A stretch of DNA of 64,000 bases from an uncultured Bacillota bacterium (GCA_958352855.1 CATWQE010000005.1:25785-89784); one strand, 5' to 3'; positions 8,890-43,588 are shown, counted from the stretch's first letter. Numbers and translations: made by a program. Notes: generated by a model not told the origin, from the letters alone.

Positions 8890-10542
8890 GTGAAAGCTAT
8901 GAAACACGAAAAAGACTGGTACAAGGAACTGGTGATTTATCAGATTTATCCCAGAAGCTTTAAAGACGGAAATGGGGATGGAATCGGTGATTTAAAGGGC
9001 ATGATTGAGAAACTGGATTACCTGCAGAAGCTGGGTGTCAATGCAGTGTGGATGTCTCCGGTTTACGCCTCTCCCAATGTGGATAATGGCTACGATATTT
9101 CGGACTATTTCTCTATTATGGAGGAATTCGGCACCATGGAAGACTGGGAAGACTTTCGGGACGGGGCTCACGCACGGGGGATTGCCATTATTATGGATTT
9201 GGTGCTGAATCATACTTCGGATCAGCACATCTGGTTTCAGGAGTCAAAGAAATCCAGAGAAAATTCATATAGTGATTTTTATATCTGGAAAGACCCGGCA
9301 CCGGACGGCGGCGCTCCCAATGGCTGGATGTCTGTGTTTGGGGGCAGCGCCTGGGAATATGTGCCGGAGCGGGGGCAGTATTATCTTCACTTTTTTGCCA
9401 AGGAGCAGCCGGACTTAAACTGGGACTGTGAAGAAGCCAGGGAGAAAATTTTCGATATAATCCGTTTTTGGAACGAAAAGGGTGTGGATGGCTACCGGGT
9501 TGATGCTATCAGCTATCTGGATAAGGGACTGGACGGAAGGGCTGATTTTCAGGAACCCATGGGAACCGTAGCCTGTGCGAATCTGGAAGGGACCCACCGC
9601 TATATACGGGAGATGGCAGCCAAGACCTTTGCCCCTGGAAACCTCATGAGTGTAGGAGAAGTCAATATAAATACAGAGCAGGATGCCAGGAATTATTCCA
9701 GTGCCGGAAGCGGGGAGTTTCACATGGCCATTCCTTTTGTGCCGCCTATTGTAGAGATAAAAACCTGGTCTCCGGAAAAACTGAAACGAGATTTGGAGAA
9801 GGATTATCAGGTGCTGCAGGAAGATGGCTGGTGGGCCAGATTCCTGAGCAATCACGACAAACCACGGCAGGTATCCCTCTATGGAAATGACGGCCCTTAC
9901 TGGAAGGAATCTGCCAAGATGCTGGCCTGTTATCTTCATACGCTGCCGGGAACACCTTTTGTCTATCAGGGAGAAGAACTGGGCATGACCAATGTGCGGT
10001 TTGAATCCATAGAAAAATATGATGACATTGACACAAAGAATTATTATAAGACCATGATAAGTGAGGGAGCTTCCAAAGAGGATGCACTGGCAGAATCCCA
10101 GATTATCAGCAGGGATAATGCCAGAACCCCTATGCAGTGGGATGATACGGTTTATGCAGGATTTTCCAGGCATAAGCCCTGGCTAGGCGTGAATCCCAAT
10201 TATATGGAAATCAATGTTGCCAGCCAAATGGAGGATGAAACGTCGGTGTTCCAGTTCTACCGGAAACTCATTGCCCTTCGCAAGGAAAATCCTGTGATGA
10301 TACATGGGGATTTTGCCCTGTGCTGCCCAAAGGAAGGCCCGGTGATTGCCTATACCAGAAGCCTGGGCGAGGTGACCTGGATGGCTGTTCACAATTTCTC
10401 AGAAGTAGAACAGGTATTTGAGTGCAACAGGGTTCAGGGAACAGAGAAAGTAGTTGTGTCCAATTATGAGGAAAGAAAGATAGAGAAAGGGAAGATTAGA
10501 CTGAGAGCATATGAAACAATGATATTGGAAATGGGGAATTAA
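8890..10542 (+). CDS. GH13 alpha-glucosidase / oligo-1,6-glucosidase family
   Basis: Canonical GH13 regions: YQIYPRSFKDGNGDGIGD, DLVLNHTS, GVDGYRVDAISY (nucleophile Asp), GEVN (acid/base Glu), FLSNHDKPR. 550 aa, cytoplasmic. Confidence 0.9.
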   Translation: MKAMKHEKDWYKELVIYQIYPRSFKDGNGDGIGDLKGMIEKLDYLQKLGVNAVWMSPVYASPNVDNGYDISDYFSIMEEFGTMEDWEDFRDGAHARGIAIIMDLVLNHTSDQHIWFQESKKSRENSYSDFYIWKDPAPDGGAPNGWMSVFGGSAWEYVPERGQYYLHFFAKEQPDLNWDCEEAREKIFDIIRFWNEKGVDGYRVDAISYLDKGLDGRADFQEPMGTVACANLEGTHRYIREMAAKTFAPGNLMSVGEVNINTEQDARNYSSAGSGEFHMAIPFVPPIVEIKTWSPEKLKRDLEKDYQVLQEDGWWARFLSNHDKPRQVSLYGNDGPYWKESAKMLACYLHTLPGTPFVYQGEELGMTNVRFESIEKYDDIDTKNYYKTMISEGASKEDALAESQIISRDNARTPMQWDDTVYAGFSRHKPWLGVNPNYMEINVASQMEDETSVFQFYRKLIALRKENPVMIHGDFALCCPKEGPVIAYTRSLGEVTWMAVHNFSEVEQVFECNRVQGTEKVVVSNYEERKIEKGKIRLRAYETMILEMGN

Positions 10543-10559
10543 AGGAGAAAGAAAGGCAT

Positions 10560-11408
10560 ATGAAAGATAGATATACGATATCCGAGATGGCCAGATTTTT
10601 TAATGTCTCCAGCCAGACCTTACGTTATTATGATAAAATTGGTCTTTATCGTCCGGCAGTGGTGAATCGGGAGAACGGATACCGCTACTATAGTTATGAG
10701 CAGTTTTTTACATTGTCTCTGATTATACAATTGAAAAAACTGAATTTTACACTGGATGACATTCAAAAATACATTCAGATTAAAGATGTAGGATATCTGG
10801 AAGAAATTTTGAAAAAAGAACAAAGGGTTATTGAGGAGGAACTGGTAGAATTACAGAAATTAAAAATAAAAAATCAGATGCTTTTGAAAAAGATTCAACT
10901 TTCCAGAGATGTGGAAGAACAGGAAACCATAGAATTACGTAGAGAGACAGAACGGTATACATATCGGATTCCGATAAATTTTGAAATACAGAATATTTAT
11001 CAGTATATTAAGCTGATGTATGATTCTTATTTACGGGAATTACCAGATGCAGCGGCGGCAGAGCACCGGGAAGTAGTGCTGCAAATTCGAAAGAATAATT
11101 TGCAGCAGAAAAAATTTAGAATTTATAACAGCATTGGATTTTTTATTGATCAGAATGACATTAAGCCAGGATTTGAAATCCATGTGATTCCAGAAGGGGA
11201 TTATGTCACAGGTTATCATATGGGGGCGTATGATACGATTCATCATACGTATGAGAAATTGTATGCATATATTGCAGAACACGCCTATAGTATCGTGGGG
11301 GATTCTTTAGAATTTTCCATCATTAGCATCGCATTAACAAATCAAAAAGAAGATTTTATTACAGAAATTCAGATTCCGGTGAAAATACAGGGAGACAGTA
11401 CACAGTAA
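10560..11408 (+). CDS. MerR family transcriptional regulator with C-terminal effector domain
   Basis: N-terminal MerR HTH (YTISEMARFFNVSSQTLRYYDKIGLYRP), then a coiled-coil region, then a C-terminal domain of about 150 aa. Confidence 0.8.
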   Translation: MKDRYTISEMARFFNVSSQTLRYYDKIGLYRPAVVNRENGYRYYSYEQFFTLSLIIQLKKLNFTLDDIQKYIQIKDVGYLEEILKKEQRVIEEELVELQKLKIKNQMLLKKIQLSRDVEEQETIELRRETERYTYRIPINFEIQNIYQYIKLMYDSYLRELPDAAAAEHREVVLQIRKNNLQQKKFRIYNSIGFFIDQNDIKPGFEIHVIPEGDYVTGYHMGAYDTIHHTYEKLYAYIAEHAYSIVGDSLEFSIISIALTNQKEDFITEIQIPVKIQGDSTQ

Positions 11409-11431
11409 AATTCTGTGTACTGTCTTTTTTT
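11395..11431 (+). terminator. Rho-independent terminator of the merR-family gene
   Basis: ACAGTACACAG pairs with CTGTGTACTGT (11-bp stem, loop contains the TAA stop), followed by CTTTTTTT. Confidence 0.7.
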
Positions 11432-11441
11432 GTGTGGCTAT

Positions 11442-11488
11442 TTGAAAATTGGAGTATAAACTTTATAGTAACTATAAAGTTTATACTC
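11442..11488 (+). promoter_or_regulatory. Perfect 18-1-18 palindrome (37 bp), candidate operator, with TTGAAA upstream
   Basis: GAGTATAAACTTTATAGT-A-ACTATAAAGTTTATACTC at 11452-11488. Every arm position is complementary, checked by hand. TTGAAA lies at 11442-11447. Confidence 0.5.
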
Positions 11489-11532
11489 TGTTAAAAAAAG
11501 ATAAAAAGTAGAAAATAAAAGAAGAAATATCA

Positions 11533-11563
11533 TTGACTTTATAGTTACTATATAGTTTATACT
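11533..11563 (+). promoter_or_regulatory. MerR-type promoter: -35 TTGACT, 19-bp spacer carrying a dyad, -10 TATACT
   Basis: TTGACT at 11533-11538. The spacer contains CTTTATAGT-T-ACTATATAG, a degenerate copy of the upstream palindrome. TATACT at 11558-11563. A 19-bp spacer with an internal dyad is the hallmark of MerR-controlled promoters. About 37 nt upstream of the hydrolase ATG. Confidence 0.5.
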
Positions 11564-11599
11564 TTATTGTAGTAAATAAGTAAACGGAGGAAACGAAGT

Positions 11600-12490
11600 A
11601 TGAAGAGAACATTGAACGTAAGCATCATTCAATCGCCAATGAATCCGGATACAACGGAAAGTCTGCAGTATTTAAAAGAGCAGGTAGCACGATTAATGAG
11701 TGGCTATGTGAAACCAGAATTGATTATTGGTGTGGAACATGGACTTGGCAGAGATTTGCATCGGATTCCTGGGAAAACCATTGAATTTTTAGGAGAAATT
11801 GCCAGGAAATATGGGATTTATTTTATTCCGGGAACTATGTCAGAAATGGCTGGGGAGGAGGAAAAAGACGGTTTTTATAATACGTGTCCTGTCTTTGGAC
11901 CGGACGGCAGTCTGTTGAGAGCATATCGAAAAAAAGTGCCTTTTCGTCCGGGAGAACCTTCTCGGCCAAGTGAAGATGATGAATATTGTATTTTTGAAAT
12001 TCCAGAAAAACATATTAAAGTGGGGGTTCTCATTTGTTATGATCAGTTTTTTCCGGAAATTGCAAGAACATTGGCATTAGAAGGCGCAGAACTTTTGGTA
12101 TGTCCTGCACTGGATCCTATGGAATATGACTACATTTGTGACATCCTGCCAAGAGCAAGAGCACTGGAAAATGAGCTGTTTTACATTTGGACTTGTGGAA
12201 CTGGAAATACCCCGTCTGGAACCTGCTGTGGACATTCTACCATTGTAAATCCAGAGGGAGGGGTGGTATATAAGTGTGGAAGTCTGCCTATGGTATATAC
12301 AGCAGTGTTAGATTTTGATGAGGTTATCAGAAAACGGATTTATGGACGAGATCAGCATTTGAATTCTCTAAGAGAATTTAAAGTGAAATATCCATACAGT
12401 GGAAGACTGGAAGAAGCGCCGGTATATGAGAATATGCCGGGGCTTACCAAAAATCCGCAGGAATATCTGGAGAGAATCTCTGAGGATTAG
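11600..12490 (+). CDS. Carbon-nitrogen hydrolase family protein (nitrilase/amidase superfamily)
   Basis: CN-hydrolase signatures including the catalytic-Cys region KVGVLICYDQFFPE. RBS GGAGGAAACGAAG. Confidence 0.8.
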   Translation: MKRTLNVSIIQSPMNPDTTESLQYLKEQVARLMSGYVKPELIIGVEHGLGRDLHRIPGKTIEFLGEIARKYGIYFIPGTMSEMAGEEEKDGFYNTCPVFGPDGSLLRAYRKKVPFRPGEPSRPSEDDEYCIFEIPEKHIKVGVLICYDQFFPEIARTLALEGAELLVCPALDPMEYDYICDILPRARALENELFYIWTCGTGNTPSGTCCGHSTIVNPEGGVVYKCGSLPMVYTAVLDFDEVIRKRIYGRDQHLNSLREFKVKYPYSGRLEEAPVYENMPGLTKNPQEYLERISED

Positions 12491-12518
12491 TAGGGAAGAT
12501 AAGTGGGAGGTAAAAAAC

Positions 12519-13823
12519 ATGGAGAAAAAGTGTAGTAGAAATATGGCAATTTTTAAATTCCTGGTGTTCTCAGGGGTAGGCGTATTTATGTTTTTTGTAA
12601 ACATAGAAATAAATGGAGTCAGTGTAATTCCTATTCAGCATATGATAAATTTTGTAAAAGCTACATGCGGACCCATTATTCCGTACTATACACTGATTAT
12701 GGTTACTTTTGGCGTAGTGGCGCCGATTGTTACAAAAGCTTATAAGAAATCGAAATTCGATTTGGTTTTTACGATCACGAAGGCTTTTGGTGTGGTAATT
12801 TCCATTATGGCCATCTTTAATATTGGACCGGCACCGTTAATGAAAGATGATATGATTCCGTTCCTGTTTAACAGTTTGGTTGTTCCTATTGCATTGATGA
12901 TTCCGCTGACTGGAATTGCTTACGTACTGATGCTGAATTTTGGTTTGGTAGAATTTATTGGTATGTTTATGCGTCCGATTATGAAAAAGATTTGGAAAAC
13001 ACCAGGAGAAAGTGCAGTAGATGCTATCGTTTCCTTTGCAGGTGGATATTCTCTGGCAGTTTTGTTGACTAGTGATTTTTATAAAAAGGGTATTTATACC
13101 AGAAAACAGAGTATCATTATTTCTACTGGATTTTCAACGGTAGCAACCTCCTTTTTGATTGTTATTGCAAATACACTGGGAATTATGGAACATTGGACCT
13201 TGTATTTCTTTACCTGCTTGTTCGTAACATTTGCAGTAACAGCAATTTGTGCCAGAATTTATCCAATTAGCAAGGAACCGGAAGATTATTACGATAAACC
13301 GGCAGAAATCGTGGAAAATAAGGGAGGAAATCTTTTCAAAAATGCTTTTGAGAGTGGTGTAGAAGTTGCTCAGAATGCAGAACCTCTCTGGGTGCATTTA
13401 AAACGATATTATGTAGGAGATGCTATGAAAATGGCCTCTTCTGTGACTGCCAGCATTTTAACCATTGGTTTGATTGGTCTGATTGTGGCAAACTTTACGC
13501 TAGTATTTGATTGGGTAGGTTATATTTTTTATCCGTTTACCAGAATTTTGCAGCTTCCAGAGCCTATGATTGCAGCAAAAGCAGCGGCTATTGAAATAGC
13601 AGAAATGTTTCTTCCGTCCTTACTGGTAGTAGCAACGCCAATGGTGACAAAATTTACCATTGCGGTTACCAGTGTATCGGCGGTGCTGTTCTTTTCAGCG
13701 TCGATTCCGAGTTTACTGTCCACAGATATTCCCATCAAAATGAGAAATATTCTCTTAATTTGGGTGGAGAGAACGATTTTTTCTTTAATCTTGGCAGCAG
13801 GAATTGCACATCTGTTTTTCTGA
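12519..13823 (+). CDS. Polytopic membrane protein, YjiH / nucleoside-recognition (Gate) family-like putative transporter
   Basis: About 10 predicted TM helices. Start placed at the ATG at 12519 behind GGGAGG. The longer frame from 12399 overlaps the hydrolase and lacks an RBS. Family assignment is by overall resemblance only. Confidence 0.45.
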   Translation: MEKKCSRNMAIFKFLVFSGVGVFMFFVNIEINGVSVIPIQHMINFVKATCGPIIPYYTLIMVTFGVVAPIVTKAYKKSKFDLVFTITKAFGVVISIMAIFNIGPAPLMKDDMIPFLFNSLVVPIALMIPLTGIAYVLMLNFGLVEFIGMFMRPIMKKIWKTPGESAVDAIVSFAGGYSLAVLLTSDFYKKGIYTRKQSIIISTGFSTVATSFLIVIANTLGIMEHWTLYFFTCLFVTFAVTAICARIYPISKEPEDYYDKPAEIVENKGGNLFKNAFESGVEVAQNAEPLWVHLKRYYVGDAMKMASSVTASILTIGLIGLIVANFTLVFDWVGYIFYPFTRILQLPEPMIAAKAAAIEIAEMFLPSLLVVATPMVTKFTIAVTSVSAVLFFSASIPSLLSTDIPIKMRNILLIWVERTIFSLILAAGIAHLFF

Positions 13824-42882: not shown

Positions 42883-43553
42883 TGGACTTGCAGAGGAGGA
42901 AAACATTGATAAAAGCAGTGATTTTTGATATGTATGAGACCCTGATTACTCATTATGAATGTCCTTTATATTTTAGCGCGGAGATGGCGAAAGATGCAGG
43001 GATTTCAGAAGAAAACTTCAGAAAAATATGGAGAGAAACCGAAACCAAAAGAACCATTGGAAAGCTTTCTTTTGAAGAAGTATTAGAGCGGATTTTGAAA
43101 GAAAATAACAGCTATTCAGAAGAAAAATTAAGATATATAGCTGCTAAACGTATTCATACAAAGGAAGAATTATTTTGCCATTTACACAAGGAAATTATAC
43201 CACTGCTGAATGCGTTGAAGGAAAGGAAAATTCAGATTGGATTAATCAGCAATTGTTTTTCCGAAGAGGCAAAGGTTATTAAAAAGAGTATTTTATATCC
43301 ATATTTTGATGTTCCGCTTCTGTCCTATGATGAGGGATTACAGAAACCAGACTTGGAAATTTTTCAGAGATGTCTGGAAAGACTGCAAGTGTTTCCACAG
43401 GAATGTTTGTATGTAGGAGATGGTGGAAGTTTTGAACTGGAAGCAGCAGAAAAAATAGGAATGAAGGCAGTGCAGGCAGTTTGGTATGTATCCCAGAGAA
43501 AGGCAGAGTTTCGGCAGCTAGAGAGTCCCCTGGAGCTTTTAAGATTACTTTAG
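42879..43553 (+). CDS. HAD superfamily hydrolase
   Basis: Motif I FDMYETL (DxYxT) and motif [13 protein letters not shown]. Confidence 0.75.
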
Positions 43554-43588
43554 TATTGGAACTCCATGCTGCCATGGAGTTCCAATAC
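43554..43588. terminator. Perfect 15-bp-stem hairpin between convergent genes
   Basis: TATTGGAACTCCATG CTGC CATGGAGTTCCAATA. Confidence 0.5.

Follow-up and report, generated by a model that had tools for sequence, protein, structure and literature searches.

A second box, conserved at constant spacing upstream of a MerR-type promoter

In the textbook model of MerR regulation, one dimer sits on one operator in a long promoter spacer and activates transcription by distorting the DNA. Here we describe a control region that appears to add a second element to this scheme. It lies in a stretch of 64,000 nucleotides from an uncultured Bacillota bacterium (GCA_958352855.1 CATWQE010000005.1:25785-89784), referred to as the window, between the gene of a MerR regulator with a GyrI-like domain and an operon for a carbon-nitrogen (CN) hydrolase and a Gate-domain (YjiH-like) membrane protein that occurs in gut Clostridia. 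One box is embedded in the promoter of the operon and a related box lies upstream of it. The invariant spacing of 76-79 bp between the two, absent from a preliminary description of this DNA, is the strongest feature of the arrangement. We consider it probable, at about 0.6, that the adjacent MerR protein binds both boxes and that the distal one serves as a distance-dependent auxiliary operator. The promoter as such is a routine member of the MerR type; the two-box architecture is what appears to be new.

Two related boxes in the control region

The elements of the control region, in window coordinates, are these:

11393-11431, plus strand: intrinsic terminator of merR with a 13-bp stem, a 7-nt loop and a T run (perfect 13-nt inverted repeat 11393-11405 / 11413-11425, then TTTTTT)
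11442-11469, plus strand: sigma-70-like TTGAAA-16-TATAGT overlapping the left arm of the palindrome; 10/12 match, function uncertain
11452-11488: perfect 18-1-18 palindrome GAGTATAAACTTTATAGT-A-ACTATAAAGTTTATACTC, an inverted repeat with 100% complementarity
Within 11452-11488: outer arms of the palindrome, GAGTATAA / TTATACTC, flanking the core of the distal box; lineage-specific
11460-11480: core of the distal MerR box, ACTTTATAGT-A-ACTATAAAGT, centre 11470; 29.3 bits with a position weight matrix (PWM), the highest score in the window
11481-11532: AT-rich linker between the boxes, 82% A+T
11533-11538, plus strand: -35 hexamer TTGACT, by direct reading
11536-11556: proximal MerR box ACTTTATAGT-T-ACTATATAGT, an inverted repeat, centre 11546; PWM score 27.3 bits
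11539-11557, plus strand: 19-nt spacer, by direct reading
11558-11563, plus strand: -10 hexamer TATACT, 19 bp past the -35, by direct reading
11586-11590, plus strand: ribosome-binding site GGAGG, 9 nt ahead of the ATG, by direct reading

The preliminary description had reported the palindrome without arm mismatch, its place just downstream of the merR terminator, and the TTGACT and TATACT hexamers with their 19-nt spacer; direct reading bears out all of these together with their coordinates. It had also placed a related dyad inside the spacer. The dyad is there, but its first 3 nt are also the final three of the -35 hexamer, so that it is not strictly inside. A terminator scan also flags the hairpin at 11393-11425, but assigns it to the minus strand. 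With the first base of the -35 as position 1, the proximal dyad is centred on position 14, and the ATG of the CN hydrolase at 11600 follows 36 nt past the -10. Transcription of the operon would start near 11570, which would put the centre of the distal box at about -100.

The two sites form a 33-nt direct repeat with 88% identity, 76 nt from start to start, that reaches past the box into the -10 region. Within the 64 kb, the 21-mer with at most three mismatches is found at these two places only, compared with 0.00 expected from 100 shuffles, and the same two sites are the only hits of the box PWM. In 100 first-order Markov simulations of the window, the longest perfect inverted-repeat arm did not exceed 13 nt. 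On the basis of these shuffle and Markov controls, the two-site arrangement is beyond chance.

Conservation of the two-box layout

The two-box set comprises 15 distinct loci including the window, with MerR identities to the window of 41-100%. The species of the window has no representative in GTDB, and its best match there is L038. For each locus, the MerR identity and the centre-to-centre distance of the boxes are as follows:

Window: 76 bp
L038: 84%, 79 bp
L001: 84%, 78 bp
L004: 70%, 76 bp
L219: 65%, 78 bp
L005: 62%, 77 bp
L006: 60%, 78 bp
L007: 53%, 78 bp
L008: 50%, 78 bp
L011: 48%, 78 bp
L012 (= L212): 47%, 79 bp
L030 (Flintibacter faecis): 47%, 79 bp
L214: 45%, 76 bp
L216: 42%, 77 bp
L014 (= L042): 41%, 76 bp

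Both the promoter-embedded and the upstream box are present in 15/15 loci. At the proximal box, the register of the dyad in the spacer is identical throughout, the -35 reads TTGAC in all loci except L012 (TTGAGC), and the spacer measures 19 bp in 12 loci and 20 bp in three. This conservation of -35, spacer, -10 and embedded dyad agrees with the earlier assignment of the downstream site as a MerR-type promoter. Both operators match a shared consensus, ACCTTATAGT-W-ACTATAAGGT, of MerR regulators with a GyrI-like domain. In the distal box, conservation is confined to a core of 21-25 bp, AAAC-N-TTATAG-N3-CTATAA-N-GTTT; the outer arms seen in the window are neither palindromic nor conserved in any orthologue. 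The dyad symmetry of this core is preserved by symmetric changes, for example ACATTAT..ATAATGT in L001 and TATAC..GTATA in L007.

As an unbiased check of the spacing, the pattern ACTATAA-N40-70-TTGACNTTATAGT was scanned metagenome-wide. Among the matches listed there were 80 loci, nearly all of them chance occurrences with a flat gap distribution, and only L104, a Flintibacter-like locus, was real.

Constrained spacing and a free linker

The distance between the boxes is far more uniform than the lengths of the neighbouring segments. Its mean is 77.5 +/- 1.16 bp (SD) with a range of 76-79 bp in 14 loci, the fifteenth (L219) having 78 bp. The same 14 loci give 56.9 +/- 6.9 bp from the proximal box to the ATG, and 64.7 +/- 41 bp with a range of 2-150 from the merR stop to the distal box (169 in L219). 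Pairwise identity of the linkers among loci is 0.58 versus 0.55 +/- 0.06 for shuffles. Because the spacing is tight, the flanking segments are variable and the linker identity resembles that of shuffled sequence, we conclude that selection acts on the linker's length and not on its sequence.

Nor does the spacing depend on gene order. While merR is co-directional with the operon in 13 loci, it is divergent in L014 and L216; there the distal box, 46-51 nt ahead of the merR start codon, keeps its distance of 76-77 bp to the promoter box of the operon.

Nature of the distal box

The distal box differs from the proximal one in having no conserved promoter around it. Scores for a -35 hexamer are at least 5/6 at the proximal box in 14 of the 15 loci, and 1-5/6 (mostly 1-3) at the distal box on either strand, where TTGAC was found in none of the 15 loci on either strand. 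The TATACT flanks of the distal box are restricted to the window (0/14 other loci), and the equivalent of the TTGAAA hexamer in TTGAAA-16-TATAGT scores 1-4/6 in the 14 orthologous loci. Since a TTGAC -35 and a -10 accompany only the proximal box, the distal box is best described as an operator without a promoter. With their hexamers unconserved, both the distal box (on either strand) and TTGAAA-16-TATAGT were rejected as conserved promoters.

Other identities of the palindrome were considered as well. The preliminary description had given weight to its 37-bp length as more than one dimer would need. This weight falls away, and a 37-bp operator was rejected, because conservation is limited to the 21-25 bp core, which is as long as a single dimer site, and the outer 8-bp arms are lineage-specific. 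The perfection over 37 bp is a recent feature of this lineage that plausibly arose from quasi-palindrome correction via template switching, a known mutational process. As an intrinsic terminator the palindrome was likewise discarded: it is A+T-rich, is followed by CTGTTAAAAAAA, has no U tract and is not called by the terminator scan. An Rfam search of 11300-11700 returned only sub-threshold hairpin noise, with E values of at least 0.14 and far below gathering scores. In the 47-50% identity clade, moreover, the left half of the box has degenerated too far to pair, whereas the right half, ACTATAAGGT, has remained near the operator consensus.

A proposed mechanism and its alternatives

That one regulator binds both sites was one of two options offered earlier, and it appears to be the best reading, as the distal dyad is conserved in the 15 loci and follows the same family-wide consensus. 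We propose that the intergenic region is a two-part control region of the CN-hydrolase/Gate operon that would be read by the MerR/GyrI-like regulator encoded upstream. At the proximal box, in a sigma-A promoter, a MerR dimer would hold the promoter off without ligand; by homology, a small molecule on the GyrI-like domain would make the dimer kink and untwist the DNA and thereby realign the hexamers. The distal core would be a second site for the same dimer, without promoter elements of its own. Because its distance was held at 76-79 bp while the linker sequence drifted, its function should rest on a physical link with the promoter complex. This link would most likely be a dimer-dimer contact across a short AT-rich loop, which could raise occupancy of the proximal site, whose sequence has to serve the promoter as well, and make the uninduced state tighter. 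In the loci with divergent merR, the distal box may additionally autoregulate merR.

A more specific version invokes looping or bridging by a complex that would span two operators about 77 bp apart, as a dimer of dimers with a loop of about 55 bp between them or else as an upstream complex in wrapped form. We put this forward tentatively, judging the odds to lie somewhat against it. In such a higher-order assembly, it would be the remote box that determines the basal repression of a distortion-activated promoter and the threshold for its induction.

Several points weigh against an auxiliary operator, and against looping in particular. Some 55 bp make a very tight loop, and MerR regulators normally occur as dimers. 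The tetramer of one GyrI-like relative, BrlR, blocks its own DNA-binding surfaces (PMC6028453). The spacings found are 76, 77, 78 and 79 bp only, a 3-bp spread that corresponds to about 100 degrees of helical twist, and variants at +/- 10-11 bp were not seen in the 15 loci; for these two reasons the classic phase signature of looping does not show in this set. A wedge model, with parameters checked solely on phased A-tracts, gives no consistent intrinsic bend of the linker: curvature is above the shuffle mean in 10 of 14 loci, only one of them clearly, and below it in the window. In the clade with 47-50% MerR identity, the distal box has a degenerate left half that merges with the merR terminator. 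L218 (2729-3005), a locus with divergent merR and CN_hydrolase-Gate genes and 38% MerR identity, has a proximal box in TTGACA-19-TATAAT and no recognizable distal box at 76-79 bp; it may mark the edge of the two-box group. Finally, occupancy of both boxes is at every locus something we infer from sequence, and since many paralogous regulators share the box consensus, another family member could occupy the distal box.

This last thought can be developed into an explanation of its own, in which a paralogous MerR/GyrI-like protein, encoded at another place in the genome, occupies the distal box and brings in a second signal. Cross-recognition is chemically plausible, given that the operator consensus is common to many GyrI-like MerR subfamilies, and the far clade has a distal box whose right half is closer to the family consensus than the local proximal box is. 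The two-box layout, however, follows one MerR subfamily and its operon through very different neighbourhoods, which makes the linked regulator the simplest candidate, and the window contains no second MerR gene. The suggestion of two paralogous regulators in the preliminary description is thus not borne out there, and we rate a role for a paralogue encoded outside it as distinctly unlikely. An insulator or roadblock, in which MerR at the distal box stops read-through from merR and the genes upstream or the AT-rich hairpin aids termination, would account for other observations. The distal box follows co-directional merR in 13 of the 15 loci and abuts the T tract of the terminator in the 47-50% clade; in L006 and L007 it either overlaps the merR stop or comes immediately after it, is apparently the sole hairpin there and is succeeded by a T-rich run. 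Moreover, in another MerR subfamily (L062, L085) a near-perfect box is located 30-45 nt past an upstream terminator. Yet this role leaves the fixed 76-79 bp unexplained when the distance from the stop to the box ranges over 2-169 nt, and the same spacing is kept with a divergent merR, when there is no gene to read into the operon. MerR bound at the proximal box would already be a roadblock, and the palindrome of the window, lacking a U tract, is neither called as a terminator nor matched by an Rfam family. We therefore regard this explanation as unlikely.

Two further possibilities concern the palindrome of the window. It could itself be a promoter, either a second one of the MerR type (TAAACT-19-TATACT on both strands) or the operator of TTGAAA-16-TATAGT, driving tandem or antisense transcription. 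The window does have TATACT 19 bp past TAAACT on both strands, and the 10/12 sigma-70-like site overlaps the left arm; but these hexamers are unconserved, the -10-like flanks and the TTGAAA being absent from the other 14 loci, so that a promoter would at most be a lineage-specific add-on. As a general explanation we find it very improbable. The distal site could also be a non-functional relic, a duplicated promoter box made symmetrical by quasi-palindrome correction. The extension of the 33-nt, 88% identical direct repeat past the box into the -10 region would fit such a duplication, as would the lineage-specific perfection and outer arms. A relic should hardly persist at 76-79 bp in 15 loci, down to 41% regulator identity, with the surrounding DNA randomized, and this origin has next to no weight in our view.

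Comparison with known systems

A spacer of 19-20 bp holding a long palindromic operator defines MerR-regulated promoters (PMC9909328; also PMC7722741, PMC8113463). BmrR of Bacillus subtilis and EcmrR share with the regulator described here the combination of a MerR and a GyrI-like domain and full-length similarity. The bmr promoter likewise has a TTGACT -35, a 19-bp spacer and a dyad of about 21 bp whose midpoint is about 14 nt away from where the -35 begins; for the mer and bmr operators this position is about 13.5-14.5. BmrR differs in having a single operator, whereas here a second box is fixed about 77 bp upstream, and its target is an efflux pump rather than an amidase and a Gate-domain membrane protein. 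MerR at merOP (Tn21, Tn501) is similarly a repressor-activator acting on a dyad inside a 19-bp spacer. The divergent transcription of mer is matched by L014 and L216, but mer uses one operator for both of its overlapping divergent promoters, and these two loci have two boxes 76-77 bp apart. In most loci here, unlike in mer, merR is co-directional and a terminator stands between merR and the boxes.

The closest architectural parallels come from outside the family. At lac O1-O3 (92 bp), gal OE-OI and ara O2-I1, a promoter-proximal operator is combined with a promoterless remote copy at a constrained distance, as here. Those systems rely on proven tetramers or bridging dimers and depend on helical phase, whereas the spacing described here is shorter and shows no demonstrable 10.5-bp periodicity. 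Within the family, the GyrI-like MerR protein BrlR, found in Pseudomonas aeruginosa, forms a dimer of dimers in solution (PMC6028453). This precedent makes dimer-dimer contacts conceivable in the GyrI-like branch; the BrlR tetramer differs in that it occludes its DNA-binding surfaces, and paired operators are not described for BrlR. GlnR and TnrA, also of the MerR family, have two operators at one promoter, for example glnRAo1 and glnRAo2. Their sites, however, are adjacent and only a few bp apart, they repress or activate in the classical manner and not from a 19-bp spacer, and no fixed separation of about 77 bp is involved. BldC (PMC5859096) and CarH, again MerR-family proteins, bind direct-repeat operator arrays. 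In the open-access literature we found no precedent for a remote auxiliary operator at a fixed distance in the MerR family, be it under looping or under two operators.

Genes of the locus

The locus is composed of three genes:

10560-11408, plus strand: merR-family regulator gene, 282 aa, with an N-terminal MerR winged helix-turn-helix and a C-terminal GyrI-like effector domain
11600-12490, plus strand: carbon-nitrogen hydrolase (nitrilase-superfamily amidase), first gene of the operon; Pfam CN_hydrolase 7e-29
12516-13823, plus strand: Gate-domain (YjiH-like) membrane protein, second gene of the operon; Pfam Gate 6.5e-11

The regulator had been taken for a MerR-family protein, and its domains and alignments uphold this. 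It matches MerR_1 (PF13411, 4e-17) and MerR (PF00376, 2e-13) over residues 5-73 as well as GyrI-like (PF06445, 3e-13), aligns with BmrR over its full length in phmmer (residues 3-272 versus 4-274, E 2e-15), and aligns through its N-terminal domain with EcmrR, BrlR and others. Its stop codon is 11406-11408. An NCBIfam search of all three proteins yielded only matches far below cut-off and no specific function.

In the two-box set merR adjoins the CN_hydrolase-Gate operon everywhere except in L006 and L007, and the wider neighbourhood varies. Synteny of the CN hydrolase with merR is kept in 12 loci; the Gate gene is always linked to merR, even where an M20 peptidase stands in for the CN hydrolase. 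This is the case in L006 (1157-3678) and L007 (3983-6492), where the operon consists of Gate and an M20 peptidase/amidohydrolase behind the same two-box control region. That a different amidase family goes with the same membrane protein suggests that an amide-type substrate is taken up and hydrolysed. The mechanical open reading frame of the Gate protein begins at GTG 12399 and overlaps the CN-hydrolase gene; orthologues are 434-438 aa long, and therefore ATG 12516 is the likely real start.

The start of merR lies only 17 nt past an alpha-amylase-family gene in the window (10542-10560) and 1 nt past an acetyltransferase gene in L005 (3999-4001), and neither a promoter nor a box belonging to merR itself is visible. 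Given the close upstream gene and the lack of a visible promoter or box, co-directional merR seems to be expressed via read-through from unrelated upstream genes, without autoregulation. Elsewhere in the window, the second-longest perfect inverted repeat is found at 43553-43588 (TATTGGAACTCCATGG-CTGC-CCATGGAGTTCCAATA, 16-nt arms and a 4-nt loop); located in an apparent intergenic stretch, it is probably a terminator.

Remote boxes in the wider family and their meaning

A PWM built from these sites was scanned over 80 homologue loci from reference genomes. More than 55 relatives with 25-35% identity carry one box just past merR, with the consensus ACCTTATAGTTACTATAAGGT. In these single-box loci (L017-L091; Clostridia, Bacilli, Paenibacillus) the box reads ACC(T/C)TATAG-N3-CTATA(A/G)GGT and lies 15-60 nt past the merR stop; in L017, the one single-box locus that was read, it is inside a TTGACA-19-TAAAAT promoter. 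Since so many distant relatives have a box of the same type, the motif can be taken as the operator of the whole MerR/GyrI branch. An operator motif this common raises the question of cross-talk among paralogues in one genome.

A second MerR/GyrI subfamily with 27-30% identity, from [Clostridium] symbiosum and other Lachnospiraceae, has a near-perfect extra box upstream of a MerR-type promoter, TTGACT-19-TATCAT or TACCAT, that serves a 443-aa gene. The positions of the paired boxes are:

L050: 5769/5956, 187 bp apart
L062: 5769/5977, 208 bp apart
L085: 5770/5977, 207 bp apart

The shorter and the longer distances are about two helical turns apart. In two of the three loci (L062 and L085, as above) the remote box is just past an upstream terminator, and the linker holds conserved blocks, unlike the 77-bp linker. 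From the similar boxes of this second subfamily it follows that remote boxes may be more widespread in the MerR/GyrI family, and the boxes 187-208 bp upstream hint that the two-operator design is not unique to the loci described here.

For the MerR family, a second operator conserved at constant spacing would imply that in some members an extra architectural layer, such as cooperativity, looping or upstream wrapping, controls leakiness or sensitivity. Such a layout bears on how tight off-states are achieved and on the design of MerR-based biosensors. If a higher-order complex does form on two operators, the MerR family would thereby have its first example of an auxiliary-operator or looping architecture.

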